From: a virus | Strand: one strand, 5' to 3' | Length of the DNA: 64,000 nucleotides | Virus record (IMG/VR): IMGVR_UViG_3300013099_000017 | Location: 80,244 to 144,243 of that record | Part shown: positions 2,589 to 63,035 of the stretch, piece after piece | Layout of the letters: every line of letters begins with the position of its first letter | How positions within the stretch are numbered: the first letter of the stretch is position 1 | Made by a program: the position numbers and the translations under genes | Notes under the pieces: generated by a model | What the model saw: the letters and a program-made list of their open reading frames with translations, nothing else | Database searches by the model: none | What the model was told of the DNA's origin: nothing

Positions 2589-3173
2589 ATGAGTTCTACA
2601 AATAGAAATGCTGTAAGAAATAAAAACGATTATTATATTACACCAATAAATCAAATTGAATTATTTTGGGAACATTTTACTAAACATAATTATATTAATT
2701 TATATGATTCTGTTCTTGATCCTTCTGCTGGTGGTGATCCGGAACATCCTATTATGCCTTATCCAAGTGTACTACAATCTCATTTCAATCATCCAATAAA
2801 AACGATTGATATTCGGGAAGATAGTATTGCTGAAATCAAGGGAAATTATTTAGACTTGACAATGGATAAAAAGTATAATATAATCGTTGCTAATCCACCA
2901 TTTAATTTGGCAATAGATTTTATTAAAAAAGCATTAAATGATGTTGCTATTGATGGATATGTAATTATGCTTCTGCGTTTAAATTTCTTTGGTAGTGAAA
3001 AGCGTTATAACTTTTTAAAAGATAATATGCCCGAAGAATGTTATGTCCATTCTAAAAGAATGGGGTTTATTCCAGAACAACCAAATAAAACAGATAGTAT
3101 TGAATATGCTCATTTTGTTTGGAGAAATAGACACAATAGGGATTATTCAACTAATTTAAGGATTATAAGATGA
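2589..3173 (+). CDS. DNA N6-adenine (or N4-cytosine) methyltransferase, phage type
   Basis: VLDPSAGG SAM-binding motif, ANPPF catalytic motif, MLLRLNF. Confidence 0.85.
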   Translation: MSSTNRNAVRNKNDYYITPINQIELFWEHFTKHNYINLYDSVLDPSAGGDPEHPIMPYPSVLQSHFNHPIKTIDIREDSIAEIKGNYLDLTMDKKYNIIVANPPFNLAIDFIKKALNDVAIDGYVIMLLRLNFFGSEKRYNFLKDNMPEECYVHSKRMGFIPEQPNKTDSIEYAHFVWRNRHNRDYSTNLRIIR

Positions 3174-9178: not shown

Positions 9179-10111
9179 ATGAATGTATTGGGATTGTTTT
9201 CTGGTATTGGTGGATTTGAATATGGATTACAAAATGTTGGATATAATATTAAGGCATTATGTGAGATTGAACCATATCCAGTTTCAGTATTAAAGAAAAA
9301 CTTTCCAACTATACCTATAATTAATGACGTTAGGGATATTGTTCATAATTCATTTAAAGATATTGATGTTATTGCTGGTGGATTTCCATGTACAGATATA
9401 TCCAGAGCAGGAAAAATGAATGGTGGTATACGTGGTGAAAAATCTGGATTATGGTTTGAATTTAGGAGAATAATAAATGACATTAAACCAAAATATGCTA
9501 TTATTGAAAACGTCAATTCAATACTTGGAAACGGAATTGAAACAGTCTTATCCAACCTTGCCGAAATCGGGTATGATGCGACTTGGACATCGTATGACAC
9601 AAAATACTTTGGATTACCACAACGTAGAAGTAGAGTGTATATTATTGCCGTTCGTGACGGAATCAAAGACGGAACCGAAATCTTCCAGTTTAAAGAACGT
9701 AGTACAGAACAACACAGATACAAAGTTCAATCTATCAAAAAGAGCTTTGAATGGGATTATACGCAGGATGGAAGAATCGAAAATCCCTTTGCCTTTTTTA
9801 CTAGACAAAGAAGTGATGAATTTGCTTGTACAGGATTAAGTTCTACTTTAATGAAGCGAGATTATAAAGATTTTACCGATATAATAGCCCAAAATGGACA
9901 ATTAAGACGGGTTACACCAACTGAGCGTATGTTGTTGCAGGGGTTTCCAAAAGATTGGCTTATAAAGTCAACTAACACCAATATGTATTCATGCAATGGA
10001 ATGAGTGTACCAGTTATTGAAGAAATTGGAAAACAATTATTTCAATATGATAAAAAATATGGTATGATGTCATATGTTAAAGATATTAAACTACAAAGGA
10101 AATTGTTTTGA
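9179..10111 (+). CDS. DNA cytosine-5 methyltransferase with divergent motif X
   Basis: LFSGIGG, GFPCTD, IENV, PQRRSRVY, ERMLLQGFP; motif X reads YSCNGMSV instead of YKQxGNSV. Confidence 0.93.
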   Translation: MNVLGLFSGIGGFEYGLQNVGYNIKALCEIEPYPVSVLKKNFPTIPIINDVRDIVHNSFKDIDVIAGGFPCTDISRAGKMNGGIRGEKSGLWFEFRRIINDIKPKYAIIENVNSILGNGIETVLSNLAEIGYDATWTSYDTKYFGLPQRRSRVYIIAVRDGIKDGTEIFQFKERSTEQHRYKVQSIKKSFEWDYTQDGRIENPFAFFTRQRSDEFACTGLSSTLMKRDYKDFTDIIAQNGQLRRVTPTERMLLQGFPKDWLIKSTNTNMYSCNGMSVPVIEEIGKQLFQYDKKYGMMSYVKDIKLQRKLF

Positions 10112-10767
10112 AAAAAGATACTTTTAAGTTTGAAGATATTGATAATTTTAATCGACATATTGAATTGTCTATCCCAAATTACAAAGGATTAGTTGATATA
10201 TTCACATCATTTGCTTATGAATTCACTACACATGATGGGGTATTAATTGATTTGGGGTGTAGTACAGGATCATTCTTGGAACAATTGCCAAAAATAAAAA
10301 GTGCTCAATATATTGGTGTTGATGAAGTTGAATTTGTAGATCAAATTAATGTTAATAATGAATTTGATTATACTTTTATTAAAGGTGATATCTTGGATTG
10401 TTTAACTGAATATAATAATGATGATATTGATGTTATTGTATTAATGTTTACATTACAGTTTTTGGGTAATAAAAAACGTAAAAAAGTTGTTCAAGAATTA
10501 AAGAAATTTGTTGAACGTGGTACAACTGTATTAATATCGGAAAAAGTTTATTTAAATGATAGTAAAGTTAATTCTATTTTACAAAGAAACCATAGAGCAA
10601 TGAAGCGTCATAATTTTACTGATACTGAAATAGTAAATAAAGAATATCAATTGGCTGGCTCAATGTTTAATAAATCATATACTGACATTATAGAAGAATT
10701 GAATTTTATTGGAAATGTCAACCAAGTTTGGCAAAGTTATAATTTTATGGGATGGGTGATAAAATGA
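10108..10767 (+). CDS. CmoA-like (carboxy-SAM synthase family) protein
   Basis: FNRHIELSIPNY, DLGCSTG, VLMFTLQFL, LISEK, KRHN..EI..K, WQSYNF align collinearly with E. coli CmoA as recalled; TTG start overlaps the MTase stop, with AAGGA SD. Confidence 0.8.
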   Translation: MKKDTFKFEDIDNFNRHIELSIPNYKGLVDIFTSFAYEFTTHDGVLIDLGCSTGSFLEQLPKIKSAQYIGVDEVEFVDQINVNNEFDYTFIKGDILDCLTEYNNDDIDVIVLMFTLQFLGNKKRKKVVQELKKFVERGTTVLISEKVYLNDSKVNSILQRNHRAMKRHNFTDTEIVNKEYQLAGSMFNKSYTDIIEELNFIGNVNQVWQSYNFMGWVIK

Positions 10768-26264: not shown

Positions 26265-26921
26265 ATGAAAACCTTAATTTGTTATAGTGGTGGATTTGAT
26301 TCAACTGCTTTATTATTGAATGAGTTACAGAATGGTTATCATGTTGATACTTGTTATTTTGAATTGCCAAATAATACAGGTGCTCAATCAATTGAATTGA
26401 AAAATCGTAAAAAGATTTTAAAGTATGTATCCAAAATAACAAAAGATCCTGAAATGTCAGGAACTTTGGGAAATGATGTTGTTTATAATTTATATACTAA
26501 ATTTGATAATCGGGTATATTTACATCTTCAACAAGCATACCTATGGATACAATTTTTAATATTGAAAGTTGATTTAAGTAAATATGATCGAGTTGTTTTT
26601 GGTTATGTGAAATATGATGATTTTTGGCATTTTAAAAATGAATTTATTGAGTTATATAATTCATCCGTAAAATTAACTGTACATAAAAACACACCAAAAT
26701 TGGTATATCCTTTTGAGTGGTGTACTAAAAAAGATGTTTTAAAATGGTATGATACGGAAAATTTTTACAATAAAAATGTATCCAAATATATTAAAAAAAT
26801 AGAAAAATTAACGTTTTATTGTGAAACTCCGGTTGATGGTAAAGCATGTAAAAAATGTGATTCATGTAAACGACATAAAAGTGAGATTGGAAATGAACAG
26901 AAAAGAATTAATATTAACTAA
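26265..26921 (+). CDS. QueC-like PP-loop ATPase
   Basis: SGGFDST PP-loop; C-terminal CETP..ACKKCDSCKRH Zn site. Confidence 0.8.
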   Translation: MKTLICYSGGFDSTALLLNELQNGYHVDTCYFELPNNTGAQSIELKNRKKILKYVSKITKDPEMSGTLGNDVVYNLYTKFDNRVYLHLQQAYLWIQFLILKVDLSKYDRVVFGYVKYDDFWHFKNEFIELYNSSVKLTVHKNTPKLVYPFEWCTKKDVLKWYDTENFYNKNVSKYIKKIEKLTFYCETPVDGKACKKCDSCKRHKSEIGNEQKRININ

Positions 26922-43842: not shown

Positions 43843-44847
43843 ATGGCAGATCCGTACATAGACATGAAGTATATTCGATTGTTATCAACACAATTGAGAA
43901 ATTACAAGGAAAAGAAAAATAATTTAATTAATTTTTCGTGTCCGATATGTGGTGATTCTGAAAAAGATAAGCTCAAAGCAAGAGGTTATATCTATGAAAA
44001 ACAAAACAAATATCAATATAAATGTCATAATTGCAATGTTGGTATGTCTGCTGGAAATTTAATTAAAGCTGTTAATCCGGAATTATGGAAAGAATGGAAA
44101 GCTGAGAAATTTAAAAGTAAATATAAGCCAAAACCAAAATTCAACAATTCATTATTTAAGAATAAACCAAAGATACTTGATTATGTATTAGGTATGGAAT
44201 CTTTAGATAAATTAGATGATGATCATGTTGCTGTTCGTTATGTTAAAAGTAGATTAATACCCAAAGAACAATATCATAGAATTTATTACACGGATAATAT
44301 AAATAAAATTGGTGTTCAATTGGGATATGATGATAAATTTCCTGTTGCTGATATGATTGTATTTGAATTTATCAATATGGATGGGAGAACTACACACATT
44401 CAAGGTCGATATATTGATCCACAATCAAAAGAATTTAGATTTGTTACATTGGATATGATGAAAGATCAACCAAAAATATTTGGTTTAGAAACAATCGATC
44501 CAACTAAAAAAGTATATATTGTTGAAGCACCAATTGACAGTTTATTTTTACCAAACTGTATTGCTTATGCAGGATCAAGCCTAAATACATTTACACCCGA
44601 ATATGATGATTTTACAATCATTTTGGATCGAGAACCTAAAAATTCAGTAATTGTGAAAATTATGATGAAATGTATTGAAAAGGGATTCCCCATTGCTATT
44701 TTACCAAATGATTTAGACGGTAAAGATATTAATGATTATGTGAAGTGGGGATATGATCTCATTCCCTTAAAGGAATTGATTGACAATAATACCTTTCAGG
44801 GAATGAAAGCGAAATTAAAAATGACATTATGGAGAAAAGGAATTTGA
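43843..44847 (+). CDS. T4 gp61-like DNA primase
   Basis: CPICGDS..KARGY..CHNC Zn finger; TOPRIM VEAPIDSLF, ILDREP, KDIND. Confidence 0.95.
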   Translation: MADPYIDMKYIRLLSTQLRNYKEKKNNLINFSCPICGDSEKDKLKARGYIYEKQNKYQYKCHNCNVGMSAGNLIKAVNPELWKEWKAEKFKSKYKPKPKFNNSLFKNKPKILDYVLGMESLDKLDDDHVAVRYVKSRLIPKEQYHRIYYTDNINKIGVQLGYDDKFPVADMIVFEFINMDGRTTHIQGRYIDPQSKEFRFVTLDMMKDQPKIFGLETIDPTKKVYIVEAPIDSLFLPNCIAYAGSSLNTFTPEYDDFTIILDREPKNSVIVKIMMKCIEKGFPIAILPNDLDGKDINDYVKWGYDLIPLKELIDNNTFQGMKAKLKMTLWRKGI

Positions 44848-45464
44848 TAGATTTAAAATTAACACCATCGACTACTACTAATTCATCTTTATGTGATGTA
44901 TTTGGTGGAAATATTGAATTAGGAAATTTGATTGCAAGCGTACAATCTATTAAAATAAAAATAGGTTATGAACTTGAAACTCAAATATGTTCTATTATAA
45001 ATAAAAATAATGAAATTTATAGGCATCATAAAACAACAATAAACAAAACAACAATAGAAGCTGATATTATTGATTGTACAAATAAAAGAATAATTGAAAT
45101 AAAAAATGGTGTAAATTTTGATACAAAAAAAAGTAAAGGGGAACTTAGTTCATTATCAAAATTATATGATTATTATAATCATTTAGATTATAAATGTTAT
45201 TTTGTTTCATGGGATGCAATAACATATGATGCAATTATTTCTGGAATGAAGTTAAAACGAAACGAACAACCAGAAAATATTGAATTCTTAACAGGACAAA
45301 TGTTTGCCGATTTATATGAATTTGATTACACTATCCCTCAAAAAAATATACATAATAAAACACAGGAAAATATACAAATATTTAAGAATTATTTTAATAA
45401 TATTGATTTTACCAAACAAAAACAAACAAAATCATGTAATTGTGAACCAAGGGTATTATTTTGA
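44829..45464 (+). CDS. Putative type II restriction endonuclease (PD-(D/E)xK)
   Basis: EAD..IIEIK..NFDTKK; translationally coupled to an MTase. Confidence 0.55.
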   Translation: MEKRNLIDLKLTPSTTTNSSLCDVFGGNIELGNLIASVQSIKIKIGYELETQICSIINKNNEIYRHHKTTINKTTIEADIIDCTNKRIIEIKNGVNFDTKKSKGELSSLSKLYDYYNHLDYKCYFVSWDAITYDAIISGMKLKRNEQPENIEFLTGQMFADLYEFDYTIPQKNIHNKTQENIQIFKNYFNNIDFTKQKQTKSCNCEPRVLF

Positions 45465-46150
45465 AAAATTCAATTAAAAATATTGATGCTACTATAGGAT
45501 TAAAAAATATACCAAGTTCTTCTGTGGATTTAATTGTTACTGATCCACCATATCCGGTCATATCTGGTGGTCCAGGGGATAAAACATCCCCACAAGGGGT
45601 AATAAAAAGTAATGATGGTAAAATATTTAAACATAATGATATACATATCAAAGAATGGATATATGAATGTTATAGAGTATTAAAACCAAATACACATATA
45701 TATATTATGGTGAATTTTTTAAATTTGTCGGAATATTTAATAGAAATACAAAAAGCAAAATTTAAATTACATAATTTACTTGTATGGAAAAAGAACAATG
45801 TCACACCAAATCGTTGGTACATGAAAAATGCAGAATACACTATATTTGCATATAAAGGTTCAGCTAAAAGAATTAATAATGTTGGTCAAAGTAATACAGT
45901 ACATGAAATAAAAAATATTACTGGCAATAAAGTACATCCTACTGAAAAACCAATAGAATTAATGGATTTATATATTAATAATTCATCAAATAAAAATGAT
46001 TTAGTTTTAGATCCGTTTATGGGGTCGGGTAGTGTTGCACTTTCATGTATTAACAATAAAAGGAATTATATTGGGTTTGAAATAGATAAAGATTATTACA
46101 ATATAATTAATAATAGAATAAAAAATAATATAAACACTAAACTATTTTAA
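45461..46150 (+). CDS. DNA methyltransferase, beta-class N6A/N4C
   Basis: DLIVTDPPY, HPTEKP, VLDPFMGSGS, IGFEID. Confidence 0.93.
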   Translation: MKNSIKNIDATIGLKNIPSSSVDLIVTDPPYPVISGGPGDKTSPQGVIKSNDGKIFKHNDIHIKEWIYECYRVLKPNTHIYIMVNFLNLSEYLIEIQKAKFKLHNLLVWKKNNVTPNRWYMKNAEYTIFAYKGSAKRINNVGQSNTVHEIKNITGNKVHPTEKPIELMDLYINNSSNKNDLVLDPFMGSGSVALSCINNKRNYIGFEIDKDYYNIINNRIKNNINTKLF

Positions 46151-49536: not shown

Positions 49537-50166
49537 ATGATAAATTTAAAAGAACAACACGATCAATATTACCAAGATGATAACAATTTGGTTAATCTTA
49601 GAAAGAGTATTGATAGTGTACCAAATAAATATAAAATAGAACAGTATTGCAATAAATTTAAAAGAGACTATACTATGGTCAGAAACAAAATTTTAAGTGA
49701 TGATTGTTTTGCTGATTTTTTTGTACCAATATTAGCAAAACGAAATTTCTTTGAATCAAAAACATTGAAATATTTACAAACTGAATTGGGTTATCCTATG
49801 GTAAAAATGAATCATGTGGGTGATCATGCATTATATTTATCTGATGGTAGAATAGTTTCAAATCCAACAATAAATAGCACCAAATCATTTGATTTTAAAA
49901 TGTTGGAAAAACGATCAACTACTTTTATAGCACATAAGTATATACATGAAAATGGTGGTGCTCAAGATAATCAATTCAATGATCTTAAATACTTTTTAGT
50001 TCAGGCTAATAAATATTTCGATGCTGATCGAGAAGATTTATTTGATAGTAATATTAAATTTATGGCAATTGTCGATGGTGAATATTTCACAAATGAGAGA
50101 ATTGGTGTGTTAAATACATTTAAACGGAAAAATAAAATTATGATAAATCGTCTTAATGATATGTAA
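49537..50166 (+). CDS. Putative restriction endonuclease
   Basis: KSFDF..AHKY..GGAQDNQF pattern; overlaps an MTase gene. Confidence 0.5.
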   Translation: MINLKEQHDQYYQDDNNLVNLRKSIDSVPNKYKIEQYCNKFKRDYTMVRNKILSDDCFADFFVPILAKRNFFESKTLKYLQTELGYPMVKMNHVGDHALYLSDGRIVSNPTINSTKSFDFKMLEKRSTTFIAHKYIHENGGAQDNQFNDLKYFLVQANKYFDADREDLFDSNIKFMAIVDGEYFTNERIGVLNTFKRKNKIMINRLNDM

Positions 50167-51166
50167 TAAAAAACAATTGGGTCAATTTTACACAAAAAAC
50201 GCAGAGTATATTTTAAGGGGTTTTGTTATACCTGCAAATGTTGTTAAAATTGAGCCATTTGTGGGGGATGGTGATTTGGCAAAATGGGGTGATATTGATG
50301 AAGTTTATGATATTGATCCCAAAATAAAAAATGCTATCATACGTGATACGTTAAAGAATCCACCAAAATATAAGGACAAGTATGTAATTACAAATCCACC
50401 ATATTTGGCAAAAAATAAAAATAAAGATAAATCTTTATACAATAAATATAAAGTCGATGATTTATATAAAGCATTCATGATCTCAATGATTGATGGTAGT
50501 GTGTGCGGTGGAATACTTATAATCCCATTAAATTTTTTATGCAGTCAAGATACTGATATTCGTAATCGTTTATTTATGAAATATGATGTAATCAAAATTA
50601 ATATTTTTGAAGAAGCTGTTTTTGATGATACCGATATTCCAGTATGTGCAATTCAATTTATGAGAAAAGAATTGCAAATGTTGGGTAGTTCAACTGAAAC
50701 CGAAACTGAAATAACATCATATCCAAACAATATTACATTTAAACATGTATTTAAAAAATCAGAAAATTGGATGGTTGGTGGTGAGTTATATAACAATAAA
50801 ATTAAATCAAATTATAAGATTGGAAGATTACTTAAAAATGGTAAAGATCATACTAATTTATATTTGTATGCTATTGATGGTGGTTTGCCTGAAAACAGAA
50901 TACGATTAGAATATAGAGATACACCCTTTTATGGTAAAATTTCCGATAGAAGTTTTGCAACAATAACATCAAATATTAAAATTGAAAATGTTGAATATGT
51001 TATTAATTCATTTAATAGAATAATTGAATATTATAGGATTAAATACAATTCGTTGTTTTTAACTAATTTCCGAAATTCAACTAAGCATTATGTGAGAAAA
51101 AGACTTACATTTAAATTGGCATTTAATATTATTCAACATATTTTAAATAAACAGAAATTTTCTTAA
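50156..51166 (+). CDS. DNA N6-adenine methyltransferase, gamma-type order
   Basis: LGQFYT, IEPFVGDG, ITNPPY, IIPLNF. Confidence 0.9.
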   Translation: MICNKKQLGQFYTKNAEYILRGFVIPANVVKIEPFVGDGDLAKWGDIDEVYDIDPKIKNAIIRDTLKNPPKYKDKYVITNPPYLAKNKNKDKSLYNKYKVDDLYKAFMISMIDGSVCGGILIIPLNFLCSQDTDIRNRLFMKYDVIKINIFEEAVFDDTDIPVCAIQFMRKELQMLGSSTETETEITSYPNNITFKHVFKKSENWMVGGELYNNKIKSNYKIGRLLKNGKDHTNLYLYAIDGGLPENRIRLEYRDTPFYGKISDRSFATITSNIKIENVEYVINSFNRIIEYYRIKYNSLFLTNFRNSTKHYVRKRLTFKLAFNIIQHILNKQKFS

Positions 51167-56524: not shown

Positions 56525-57538
56525 ATGAATAAACAATATGATGTAATTGTGTACATTGGGCGTTTCCGTCCACAACATAATGGACACACCAAAATAATTC
56601 AAGATATCTCACAGTTAGCCAAAAAAACATTGGTTATTGTTGGATCAAAATCAAACCCAATTACCATTAAAAATCCGTGGACTTATGAAGAAGTCTCTGA
56701 TATGATCAAACATTCTGTACATGTTCAATATATGACAATTGCAGGAGTTGAAGATTATACCTATGATGATTATAAATGGATCAATGAAGTTAATAAACTG
56801 GTTGATAAAGAAACCGTTGGTATCGTTAATTCAAAAATTGCTATTGCAGGTTATGATAAAGATCACACAAGTTATTATTTGAAATATTTTCCACAATGGG
56901 ATTTTATTGAGCAAAAGGCTTATAGAGAATATGGCACAATTGTCAATGGTACTGATATTCGTACAGAATTCTTTAAAGGTAATACTCACCACATAAAATC
57001 TATTGTACCACCATATGTATTTGATGTTATTTTGGGGATGGATAGTAAACGTAAAAAATATCTACAAAATGAATATAATGGTATTATTGAAACACAAAAG
57101 AAATATGGTACGGGTAATAATGTATCAACTGATGCAATTGTGGTTCAATCAGGACATCTTCTATTAGTACAACGTAAAGAATCCGGAATTGATTTATGGG
57201 CTATGCCTGGGGGTTTTCTTGAACCTGATGAACTTTTAGTAGAGGGTGTTATTCGTGAATTAAGACAAGAAACTGTACTCAAAGTTCCTGAAAAAGTTTT
57301 ATTGGGTAGCATTAAAGAAATTAAACTATTTGATAAAATTGATCGAGATTTACGCAGTAGAATTATCACACAAGTTTATTTATTTAAACTGGATGATAAT
57401 TTAGATTTACCCAAAGTGAAAGGAAGTGATGATGCAAAAGAAGCAAAATGGGTTTCTATTCATGAGTTTTATAATATGAGATCTGTAATGTATGCTGATC
57501 ACTATCACATAATTGAAAAAATGTTGGAGAGTTTATAA
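56525..57538 (+). CDS. nadM: Bifunctional NMN adenylyltransferase / ADP-ribose pyrophosphatase (NadM-Nudix)
   Basis: YIGRFRPQHNGH, GYDKDHTSYYL..FPQW, GT.IR; Nudix GGF..RELRQET, GSDDA, YADH. Confidence 0.93.
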   Translation: MNKQYDVIVYIGRFRPQHNGHTKIIQDISQLAKKTLVIVGSKSNPITIKNPWTYEEVSDMIKHSVHVQYMTIAGVEDYTYDDYKWINEVNKLVDKETVGIVNSKIAIAGYDKDHTSYYLKYFPQWDFIEQKAYREYGTIVNGTDIRTEFFKGNTHHIKSIVPPYVFDVILGMDSKRKKYLQNEYNGIIETQKKYGTGNNVSTDAIVVQSGHLLLVQRKESGIDLWAMPGGFLEPDELLVEGVIRELRQETVLKVPEKVLLGSIKEIKLFDKIDRDLRSRIITQVYLFKLDDNLDLPKVKGSDDAKEAKWVSIHEFYNMRSVMYADHYHIIEKMLESL

Positions 57539-58911
57539 TGTTATATCGTGTAACTGAAAAGTTTTATGAAGATCCAGATAATATAATTGAATATGATACA
57601 TTGGATTTTGCAAAAAAACATGTTGATGAATTCTATAAAAATATTACTGATACTTATGATTCATGTTCAATTGTTCAAGTATTTCATGAAGAAGATGTTG
57701 ATTATAAATCCCCATGGGAAAATAATGATTATCGAATTTTAATGAAAATGGATAAAGAAGAACTTGTAAGTAAATTAATGGGAAAAATGGTATTATAATT
57801 GGAGAGTTTATAATGAGAACTATTAAAGAAGAACTTGGTTATACTGTTGTTTATGATACAACATACAATACAGTTGGTTATATTTCTATTGATGATAGTA
57901 GCGGTGGTTATCCATATTTTAGTGATAGACCGGATTCACGTAATGTATTTGTTGAATCATCGGATGCTGTAAAATTATTGGAAACAAGTAAAACAATGAA
58001 AACGTTTTATAAAGCAGATAAAGTTAAATTTGATACAATGAGAATTGTTAAAATAACAAGAATCATTGAAGATGTTAATATTACTGAGTTGGGTATTTCT
58101 ATACGAAAATCAATAATGAATAAATTATCAAAAGAAGAAATTGCATTTATAAAGAGTGATTTCAATGAAACTTAAATTTAAAGCATATTCATTAAAAAAT
58201 CCCGACAGTTCAAATGTTTATCGTGAAGGTCGGGAACGTGGTATGAAGATTGGTGAACAATTATTAGTTTTTGGTTCTAACCTTCATGATTCTGAATTCA
58301 AATTGAATGTTATAAGGACAATTTTTGAAGATAATAAAAATTGTAAATTTTTAACCAATAATCAAGCATCTTTTGAAGTTGAAATTGACGGTACTGAAAG
58401 TGCAGATGATCGTTTACGTGATTCATTATTGAATAAATTAACACACGATGAAATTGATTTTTTAAGACGGGAGTTTAAAGAAATATGAGAAATAGAAGGG
58501 ATGAAATTTATAGTATCTGTATTGCTTATGAACAGGGTTATGGTAAAGGTTTATATAATACCCGTAAAATAAGTAATCCGTATGTCGAAAGTGATGAACG
58601 TGTCGGCTGGGGTATTGGATATGAAGAAGGTAAAAATCAAAGAGAAATTGATGAAAGGAATAAAATTGAAAAGTCTAACACAACAACTTAATTATTATAT
58701 TTCTTCAATTTTTGCAAATGAAAGAAAATTTTTAAAAGAATTTTTTCCTGAATGGGATGAAATAGAATTACTGGAATGTTATTTTGCCAGTGAAAGAGTG
58801 AAATTAGTTATCTTGGATATAGATTCAGGACAACATATTTCCACAACGGAACCAACTTATGATGTTATGAATTGGGTAGACAACTTATAAACGATTAAAG
58901 GAGTTTTAATC

Positions 58912-60288
58912 ATGTCAATAATTACAGATGTAGATAGCTACAAAGTGGGGATGTTTAAACAATATCCTCCAAAAACTGAATATGTTTCAAGTTATATTGA
59001 ATCAAGGGGATCAGATGATCCGGATTTTGATGAAAGTGTATTCTTTGGTTTAGAATATTACATCAAAGAATATCTTATGAAACCTGTTACAATGGAAGAT
59101 CTTGAAGAAGCAAAAGAGATTTTTGATTTACATGGTGAACCATTTCCATATGATGAATGGAAATATATCATTGATGAATATGATGGATATTTACCACTAA
59201 AAATTGAATCGGTTCTGGAAGGTTCGGTACTACCACTATCAAATGTGTTAGTCCAAATTACCAACACTGATCCAAAATGTTTTTGGCTTACAACATGGGT
59301 AGAAACTCCAATACTGAGAAATGTTTGGTATGCTTCAACTGTTGCAACCAATTCAAGAGCAATCAAAAAAGAACTTAAAAAATTCTATGATAAATCTGGT
59401 TCTGTTGATGGGTTGGATTTCAAACTACATGATTTTGGTGCAAGGGGTGTATCGAGTAAAGAATCTGCTGGACTTGGTGGACTTGCTCACCTTATTAATT
59501 TCATGGGAACAGATAATGTTGAAGCATTGATGTTTGGTAGAAAGTATTATAATATTCTTATGGCTGGATTTAGTATTCCTGCTAGTGAACATAGTACAAT
59601 TACAGCATGGGGCATAAAAAACGAAAATAAAGCATTTGAAAATATGCTAAATCAATTTCCTGATTATCCTATAATTGCATGTGTTTCTGATAGTTATAAT
59701 ATTTATAAAGCTGTTGATGAATTATGGGGCAAACAATTCAAACATAGAATTCTTGATGGAAATCAAACTATTGTTATTCGTCCGGATTCTGGTGATCCAT
59801 TAACTGTACCAATTGAAGTTATTGAACGGTTAATGGCGAAATTTGGATATAGTGTAAATTCCAAAGGTTATAAAACATTACCAAAACAAGTACGAGTTAT
59901 TCAGGGTGATGGTATAACAAAAGATTCAATTAAACTTATTCTTGGTAATATGGAAAAAGCTAAATTGACTCTTGATAATCTTAGTTTTGGTATGGGATCG
60001 GGTATGCTTCAACAAGTTAATAGGGATACACTTAAATATGCCATGAAAGCAAATGCAATTTGTATTGATGGTGTTTGGTCAGATGTATACAAAGATCCTA
60101 TTAATGGTGGTAAACAGTCTAAACGTGGTGTATTAGGTTTATATCATAATGAAAACGATGGATGGATTACTGAACGTAAACTTCCAAATGATGAATCATT
60201 TAATAATTTAAATGTTGTTTATGATACAGGTATTATGAAAACAGATACACTATTTAAATTTGTTAGACAAAGAGCGAGAATAGAATAA
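58912..60288 (+). CDS. nadV: Nicotinamide phosphoribosyltransferase
   Basis: DVDSYK, SYIESRG, LHDFGARG, IPASEHST, VSDSY, IRPDSGDP, QGDG. Confidence 0.96.
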   Translation: MSIITDVDSYKVGMFKQYPPKTEYVSSYIESRGSDDPDFDESVFFGLEYYIKEYLMKPVTMEDLEEAKEIFDLHGEPFPYDEWKYIIDEYDGYLPLKIESVLEGSVLPLSNVLVQITNTDPKCFWLTTWVETPILRNVWYASTVATNSRAIKKELKKFYDKSGSVDGLDFKLHDFGARGVSSKESAGLGGLAHLINFMGTDNVEALMFGRKYYNILMAGFSIPASEHSTITAWGIKNENKAFENMLNQFPDYPIIACVSDSYNIYKAVDELWGKQFKHRILDGNQTIVIRPDSGDPLTVPIEVIERLMAKFGYSVNSKGYKTLPKQVRVIQGDGITKDSIKLILGNMEKAKLTLDNLSFGMGSGMLQQVNRDTLKYAMKANAICIDGVWSDVYKDPINGGKQSKRGVLGLYHNENDGWITERKLPNDESFNNLNVVYDTGIMKTDTLFKFVRQRARIE

Positions 60289-61802: not shown

Positions 61803-63035
61803 ATGGATTTAGAAGCATATTATGAAACTCAATATCATGATTGGTATAATTCCGAAAATTTTAATAATCAACATGATTTGGAGTTTATTGAAAATCAATT
61901 AAAATGGGAACTTGAATACTATTCAAATATGAGTGTGGAAGAATATACTCTGTTTGTTAAATTTAATGAATTACATAATACTTATAATGTTTCAAATAAA
62001 AATACATTGTTTGGCACTCAATTAAGACCAAATGCAGATTTAAGTTTTATTAATCAAATCAAAAAGAATATCTGGAACTCAGATGATTATATGTCATTGG
62101 AACCAGAATTATTATTATGTAAAGATAATCCAAAATTAAACAAAATTCGTAAAACTTTAAATGATTTTATAACTACTGGAAAAAATCAAAATAATATTGG
62201 CAGAAATTTATATTATATTGTAAGAGATAAAATAACCTTAAAATATTTGGGGATAATTACAATATCCTCTGATTATTTGGATTTAACTTGTCGAGATAAT
62301 AAAATAGGTTGGGATAAGGAACGCAAAACACAACAAATGATTAAACACTCTGTTGTATGTTCAGCATTAGTGCCTACACAACCGTTAGGATACAATTATG
62401 TTGGTGGTAAGCTGTTATCCCTATTGGTATTATCAAAACAGGTACAAGATGATTACAAGCGTATCTATGGTGATAAATTAGTTCATTACACAACTACTTC
62501 ATTGTATGGATCATTCTCCCAATATACAAGATTGAAATACTGGAAAAAAGTTGGTAAATCAAATGGTACTGTGATATTAAAACCAAGAGATAGAACATTA
62601 ATAAATCTAATGAAAGATTGGATAAGATTTATTGAACCTAAACGATTTTGGGAATGGTGGATTGCTAATACAATTAATGGTCAAAGATTTAAACGAGATC
62701 ATATCAATAGATTTTTTGTATTCTGTTATAGTAAATTAAATATCAATAGAAGTGAATATATATCCGGTCATAAACGTGGTGTATATGTTGCAGAATTATA
62801 TGAGAATACCAAAGAATTTCTAAGAGAAGAAATTACAGAAGATGAATTAATTCCAAAATTTGATAATTCTATTGAAGCATTGACTGATGTTTGGAAAAAT
62901 AAATATGCCAAGAAACGTTATGATAATTTGGTTAAAAATAACAGACTATTAAATGATGTATTATTTTATGATGATATATTATATAATGATTGGGATATAA
63001 TAAAGGATAAGTATTTGAAACAGGTTGGGAGATAA
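61803..63035 (+). CDS. DruA/DUF4338-like protein of T4-like phages
   Basis: LGIITISSD, VPTQPLGYNYVGGKLL, TTTSLYG..SQY..W..VG.S.G. Confidence 0.7.
   Translation: MDLEAYYETQYHDWYNSENFNNQHDLEFIENQLKWELEYYSNMSVEEYTLFVKFNELHNTYNVSNKNTLFGTQLRPNADLSFINQIKKNIWNSDDYMSLEPELLLCKDNPKLNKIRKTLNDFITTGKNQNNIGRNLYYIVRDKITLKYLGIITISSDYLDLTCRDNKIGWDKERKTQQMIKHSVVCSALVPTQPLGYNYVGGKLLSLLVLSKQVQDDYKRIYGDKLVHYTTTSLYGSFSQYTRLKYWKKVGKSNGTVILKPRDRTLINLMKDWIRFIEPKRFWEWWIANTINGQRFKRDHINRFFVFCYSKLNINRSEYISGHKRGVYVAELYENTKEFLREEITEDELIPKFDNSIEALTDVWKNKYAKKRYDNLVKNNRLLNDVLFYDDILYNDWDIIKDKYLKQVGR

Follow-up and report, generated by a model that had tools for sequence, protein, structure and literature searches.

A phage C5-cytosine transferase lineage with a shortened motif X and a coupled CmoA homologue: a probable DNA carboxymethylation pair

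Gene pair and genomic setting

The window, by which we mean the whole 64-kb stretch of DNA that was analysed, is the last part of a 144-kb virus record (29% GC, with T4-like genes) estimated to be ~79% complete. Two ORFs in it share 4 bases, the stop of a C5-cytosine transferase (9179-10111) overlapping the TTG start of a CmoA-like gene (10108-10767). This overlap had been described in an initial annotation of the locus and is borne out here, as are the codon positions given there for Met275 (10001) and Glu179 (10642). The features considered below are as follows:

9179..10111, + strand: C5-cytosine DNA transferase of a phage lineage with an NGM motif X (ATG start, 310 aa, PF00145 198 bits)
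10108..10767, + strand: phage-type CmoA, a carboxy-SAM synthase homologue (TTG start, 219 aa)
9986..10006, + strand: remodelled motif X, Tyr270-Ser276 (alignments, column scoring, AlphaFold model)
9854..9859, + strand: Lys226-Arg227, past a TL dipeptide; candidate carboxylate binders (family alignment)
9926..9928, + strand: Arg250 in motif IX; candidate carboxylate binder (family alignment)

The window also holds DNA methyltransferase-like genes at 2589-3173 (Dam-like), 45461-46150 (apparently of N4/N6 type, judging by its sequence) and 50156-51166 (Eco57I-like), and nuclease-like genes, judged by eye, adjoin at 44829-45464 and 49537-50166. A Druantia DruA-like protein is encoded on this phage genome at 61803-63035 (PF14236, E 1.6e-21). 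NadM-Nudix-like and NAMPT (NadV)-like genes at 56525-60288, identified by reading the sequences, suggest a possible phage NAD salvage pathway.

The initial annotation had also pointed to a cyanophage precedent, and correctly so: cyanophage S-B43 of Synechococcus has a CmoA-CmoX-CmoY system (Yang et al., Nat Commun 2025, December 2025; PMC12783734; SpCmoX PDB 8YF3). There, SpCmoA makes carboxy-SAM (Cx-SAM) from SAM and prephenate with a kcat of 2.33 per s, versus 0.23 per s for E. coli CmoA; CmoX uses carboxy-SAM to form 5-carboxymethylcytosine (5cxmC) at GC sites, and CmoY ligates glycine to it (PMC12783734). Arg350 of CmoX replaces HhaI Asn304 and touches the carboxymethyl group, and E. coli CmoA is able to supply the donor to SpCmoX in vivo (PMC12783734).

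The CmoA homologue has the His/Glu pair of SpCmoA

The 219-aa protein has the CmoA fold and the SAM-binding residues that define a phage-type CmoA. It is most similar to CmoA, with 63.7 bits against TIGR00740, and lies outside this bacterial CmoA equivalog because it scores below the curated cut-off (193.3 bits) and has Glu179 for Arg199; it also matches PHROG 4752, which is the family of SpCmoA. The top fold matches of its model (pLDDT 93.7) were 4GEK (Z 23.6), 1IM8 and 4IWN. With E. coli CmoA (P76290; PDB 4GEK, 4IWN) it has in common the fold with its lid helices (top VIA-align Z 23.0-23.6) and the SAM-binding residues Tyr39, Gly64, Ser66, Asp89 and Asp117. It differs in having Glu for Arg199, His for Met31 and Met for Asn132 (where SpCmoA has Leu), and in its partner, which is CmoB in E. 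coli but a DNA transferase here. A reading of the protein as a small-molecule methyltransferase (BelI/CysG-type matches at Z ~21 and 15% identity, versus Z 23.6 and 23% for CmoA) was rejected, mainly because of the SpCmoA signature described below and the gene context.

Arg199 of E. coli CmoA is salt-bridged to the carboxylate of Cx-SAM (PMC3663124). The initial annotation had noted that this residue is replaced by Glu, and we found that phmmer, MAFFT and hhalign all place Glu179 in the Arg199 column, with no shifted Arg near it in any of the three alignments. The annotation's further suggestion, that the replacement points to a group other than carboxymethyl, fails: SpCmoA, a proven Cx-SAM synthase, has the same Glu in this column (its sequence was taken via the coordinates given in the source data of PMC12783734). 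In addition, His17 (codon 10156) corresponds to E. coli Met31, and the His17/Glu179 pair is identical to that of SpCmoA.

Among 105 homologue rows, the Arg199 column held Asp in 83, Glu in 11, Gln in 5, Asn in 4, and Val and Arg in 1 each. In a covariation set of 162 rows, His31 occurred with Asp, Glu, Gln, Asn, Ser or Val at position 199 in 155 and Met31 with Arg199 in 4, the 3 further rows being truncated; His31 and Arg199 occurred together in 0/162. All 53 of the transferase-partnered phage-type CmoAs that were examined had His at position 31. Glu in place of Arg199 therefore tells nothing of a different donor, as phage Cx-SAM synthases normally lack this Arg, and the covariation makes Arg199 an invalid test for Cx-SAM synthesis in phage CmoAs. 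We suggest that the His, aided by the acidic residue, may assume the role of Arg199 in these proteins. The query has the consensus residue at 20/20 near-invariant phage CmoA columns (SpCmoA at 19) and carries, as SpCmoA does, an unpublished signature derived in the present analysis: His31, a residue other than Arg at 199, and Lys165/185/198.

In a maximum-likelihood tree, the query CmoA fell in a 29-row clade (support 97/97), of which 22 rows have transferase partners bearing Arg at the Asn304 position (Arg-type partners); some loci of these Arg-type members also carry a SpCmoY homologue (~50% identity). The six CmoAs nearest to the query with partners of the NGM lineage form their own subclade (100/99), and the alignment contained no CmoA column that was conserved among NGM partners yet differed from those of Arg-type partners.

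The transferase belongs to a separate lineage

The transferase has a C5-MTase fold and, as in CmoX, the catalytic Cys (Cys71, codon 9389), the motif VI Glu (Glu110, codon 9506) and an intact motif VIII (Arg150/Arg152), all four residues being invariant across the NGM transferase family. Its AlphaFold model matched M.HhaI with Z 26.2 (rmsd 3.4, 267 aligned) and SpCmoX 8YF3 with Z 22.5 (rmsd 4.0, 242 aligned). The end points of the fold search pair 8YF3 residue 372 with transferase residue 295, which fixes the register of the last helix only, and pLDDT falls below 50 at residues 212-232.

The NGM family has over 60 phage members (39-83% identity), which form a single tree group (support 94) separate from SpCmoX and the Arg-type partners. 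Its cultured representatives include the Vibrio phages S4-7 (KX507046), 1.052.A (MG592433) and 1.233.A (MG592597). No bacterial chromosomal members appeared among the best 80 genome matches listed, and a literature search found no publications on this lineage. The query and most of the family have GFPC as the catalytic motif, often directly followed by Gln, as with HhaI Gln82. The query lacks the SPPC motif of CmoX and has no Arg at the HhaI Asn304 position, with neither Arg nor Lys at residues 270-284; because both published CmoX features are missing, it should not be filed as a CmoX. We nevertheless regard the 310-aa protein as a probable carboxymethyltransferase. In five family members (P0171-P0175, L340:2501-4465), an intein interrupts the transferase at its catalytic Cys. 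These five are the only longer forms found, which is weak evidence that fusions of the transferase to a CmoA or a ligase are absent.

Motif X is shortened and has no basic residue

The family consensus of motif X is aromatic-x-x-Asn-Gly-Met-(Ser/Thr/His)-Val-Pro, with the Met fixed in 89/89 members. In the query transferase, the motif lacks two residues relative to M.HhaI and CmoX, and where canonical C5-MTases have a full-length motif with a Gly-Asn dipeptide, its residue order is Asn-Gly-Met. Single-sequence phmmer and one MAFFT run placed Met275 on Asn304/Arg350, whereas the profile of 62 family sequences and another MAFFT run, with close canonical and Arg-type relatives added, placed Asn273 on HhaI Asn304 and SpCmoX Arg350. 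In column scoring, the register with Met275 on 304 fitted upstream of motif X and the shifted register fitted downstream, and therefore a two-residue deletion lies inside the motif. With two of three reference sets, the Arg-type and the HhaI-like relatives, Met275 was best placed on position 306, where Arg-type relatives likewise carry Met; the short-TRD canonical set alone marginally favoured Met275 on 304 (9.0 vs 8.0). The AlphaFold model has a short helix at 266-271, a loop at 272-276 and the final helix from 277, which is consistent with Ser276 as a helix cap.

Judged from these alignments, Asn273 (codon 9995) is the likelier equivalent of Asn304/Arg350, and Met275 more likely falls on position 306. 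The substitution of Asn304 by Met that was initially proposed is thus right about the Met at codon 10001 and follows the register of phmmer and one MAFFT run, but the family profile and the second MAFFT run favour Asn273 at that position. What is firm is that motif X is shortened and, in either register, has no basic residue, rather than that Asn has been cleanly replaced by Met.

Three basic residues elsewhere stand out in the family alignment. Lys226 is found in 98/98 NGM members having that motif and is Ala in Arg-type relatives. Arg227, counted from the TL dipeptide, corresponds to HhaI Tyr254, one of three residues beside the transferred group, whose channel it lines (PMC3526304); Arg-type relatives also have Arg at this position. 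Arg250 occurs in 101/101 NGM members but is missing from all 39 Arg-type and 8 canonical relatives scorable there. One of these three residues may take the place of Arg350 in binding the carboxylate.

Transferase and CmoA are coupled across most of the lineage

Loci were fetched with the transferase as the query, and the NGM family was clustered at 90% identity, yielding 26 clusters. A CmoA-like gene was adjacent, as it is at the query locus, in 22 of the 26 clusters, nearly always overlapping, and in 0/74 canonical relatives with both flanks; these controls came from the same queries and are mostly bacterial and metagenomic, not phage-matched. The coupling exceeds chance. NGM transferases pair with at least three separate CmoA lineages, with the CmoA upstream or downstream, and on the CmoA tree the partner label must change three times or more. 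One of these lineages is of the Moraxella phage Mcat8 type, and Mcat8's own partner is a CmoX with SPPC and Arg. That NGM transferases swap CmoA partners implies a common donor.

The four NGM clusters without CmoA form one branch with a common C-terminal tail and include three Vibrionaceae phages; two more members without CmoA were also seen. Hosts of CmoA-less isolates include Enterovibrio norvegicus, Vibrio anguillarum and Vibrio breoganii, and we found no CmoA match anywhere in the records of the Vibrionaceae-phage members. Most gammaproteobacteria have a cmoA-cmoB operon (PMC4482062), so the CmoA of the Vibrionaceae hosts could supply Cx-SAM to these phages. If Cx-SAM is the common donor, one expects partners to be interchangeable and to be lost where the host probably has a CmoA of its own; a private new cofactor would hardly explain either. 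The tail, which makes up the last ~50-60 residues of the CmoA-less Vibrio-type transferases, was seen at L049, L050, L051, L053 and L331 and was absent elsewhere in the fetched loci. Two such tails were scanned, with no PHROG match.

A further type of C5 transferase, in which motif X lacks the Gly-Asn pair and reads Tyr-Glu-Arg-Cys/Thr-Ser-Gly-Ile-Pro, was found at L052:5504-6523, L060:4890-5936, L079:3875-4924, L335:1938-2993 and L339:4169-5287. It occurs as a second transferase in NGM-CmoA loci, and on the megaplasmid CP009417 of Jeotgalibacillus malaysiensis it is the sole partner of a CmoA with His31 and Asp199. This type is possibly another Arg350-independent user of Cx-SAM.

Target site and further processing

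CGCG, GCWGC, GGCC and most GC-containing 6-mer palindromes have zero or near-zero counts in the record; CGCG, GCWGC, CCSGG and ~30 six-base palindromes are missing altogether, though many of the expected counts are low. CCGG is over-represented 1.29-fold. Such strong restriction-site avoidance points to a host with many restriction systems. Because many C-containing restriction sites are wholly lost, cytosine is not modified genome-wide, and the transferase probably covers a limited site. Apart from the usual avoidance of palindromes, the 14 NGM-carrying records compared shared no consistent enrichment or depletion of any word, and most of them are depleted in CCGG, so no target site can be inferred.

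CmoY, an asparagine-synthetase-like amide ligase, had no match in the 79%-complete record with either the profile or the SpCmoY sequence, nor did any turn up in a further 10 NGM-carrying records, of which 6 are ≥90% complete. Likewise, no Asn_synthase family member was present in 11 NGM-carrying records or beside any of the 26 clusters. The window does encode a lone QueC-like PP-loop protein (26265-26921), ~15.5 kb from the pair; a simple motif scan of the record found no obvious QueD or FolE to accompany it, and homologues occurred in 0/5 near-complete NGM-carrying phages.

Discussion

We consider it probable that the pair makes site-specific 5-carboxymethylcytosine without a CmoY ligase. That it modifies cytosine with a SAM analogue, as had been proposed at the outset, is very probable. 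The pair probably works like CmoA-CmoX, with a chemistry that is itself already known. As in S-B43, a CmoA homologue with His31 and Glu199 is translationally coupled to a C5-MTase-fold transferase with catalytic Cys, Glu and Arg intact. The query differs in that its transferase belongs to another lineage (27% identical to SpCmoX over 198 aa), has GFPC rather than SPPC, lacks Arg350 and has the shorter motif X; moreover, no CmoY was found in its record and its CmoA is just 24% identical to SpCmoA.

We infer both the synthesis of Cx-SAM and its use by the NGM transferase. The 219-aa protein would act as a phage-type Cx-SAM synthase, converting SAM and host prephenate to carboxy-SAM. The coupled transferase would flip the target cytosine, Cys71 would attack C6, and the carboxymethyl group would be moved to C5, giving 5cxmC at a limited site. 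The shortened motif X would accommodate the larger donor, whose carboxylate would be bound by Lys226, Arg227 or Arg250 instead of Arg350. Without CmoY, the base would probably remain 5cxmC and shield those sites from host nucleases.

Against carboxymethylation stand the GFPC motif and the missing motif X Arg, neither of which fits CmoX, and the finding that SpCmoX R350N is inactive with both donors (PMC12783734). M.MedI, a wild-type C5-MTase with Asn, nevertheless has weak carboxymethylation activity, so an Arg in motif X is not strictly required by the fold. Engineered enzymes offer a further comparison: the carboxymethyltransferases M.MpeI N374K and M.MedI N377K (PMC12015181) and the pocket-widened M.HhaI Q82A/Y254S/N304A (PMC3526304) are likewise C5-MTase scaffolds that accept a bulkier SAM analogue after changes to the motif X pocket. 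In these enzymes, a Lys is introduced at position 304 or side chains are made smaller, whereas the NGM family shortens motif X and, unlike them, has fixed basic residues elsewhere (Lys226, Arg227, Arg250).

The transferase might instead be an ordinary or mixed-donor 5mC methyltransferase, which we think unlikely, with a CmoA neighbour that serves another purpose or rides along as a cassette; its Cx-SAM would then be for draining SAM, for host tRNA modification or for a second transferase. The Asn probably kept at the 304 position would suit such an enzyme, as would the usual GFPC motif, often followed by Gln as HhaI Gln82, and several family members do without CmoA. The second C5 transferase at L052, L060 and L079 could also be the true Cx-SAM user, but most loci, the query locus included, have no second C5 transferase. 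Moreover, the coupling has arisen with CmoAs of several lineages and with the genes in either order, and the motif X change is fixed (Met in 89/89), whereas close relatives with a normal motif are without CmoA (0/74).

It is improbable that 5cxmC is hypermodified by an ATP-dependent enzyme other than CmoY, such as the QueC-like protein or one encoded in the missing part of the genome. QueC activates carboxylates, and the record, which encodes this PP-loop protein, is only 79% complete; the distance of the gene from the pair, its absence from five near-complete NGM phages and the lack of Asn_synthase members (0/11 records, 0/26 clusters) all argue against it. We give still less credence to a CmoA-like enzyme that makes a different SAM derivative, from a sulfonium ylide and a non-CO2 electrophile, with the NGM lineage moving a non-methyl, non-carboxymethyl group from this new natural donor to write an undescribed DNA base: a motif X without a basic residue and the separate subclade of six CmoAs would fit, but the Glu is common to SpCmoA, a Cx-SAM maker, the CmoAs have no NGM-specific pocket residue, and NGM transferases also occur beside Mcat8-type CmoAs and, in Vibrionaceae phages, without a phage CmoA.

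Confirmation that the NGM pair carboxymethylates DNA would mean that this modification evolved in more than one C5-MTase lineage, and that these lineages recognise carboxy-SAM in different ways. The published CmoX survey retained only sequences with SPPC and R350 (PMC12783734) and would through this filter have excluded the NGM family; it would then be an undercount, missing for example cultured Vibrio phages that are open to DNA analysis. A natural carboxymethyltransferase with another target site and donor selection would be useful for those 5mC sequencing chemistries that are built on engineered N-to-K enzymes.

Two further observations concern related systems. A large marine phage lineage (L001-L043) has transferases with Arg at the Asn304 position and GTPC at the catalytic site, by which it would likewise escape the SPPC filter; its partners are close relatives of the query CmoA, and some of its loci have CmoY. 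On the Scytonema plasmid AP018265 (L338:2510-4199), a CmoX-type transferase with SPPC and Arg overlaps a bacterial-type CmoA that keeps Met31 and Arg199, and the system is therefore not confined to phages.
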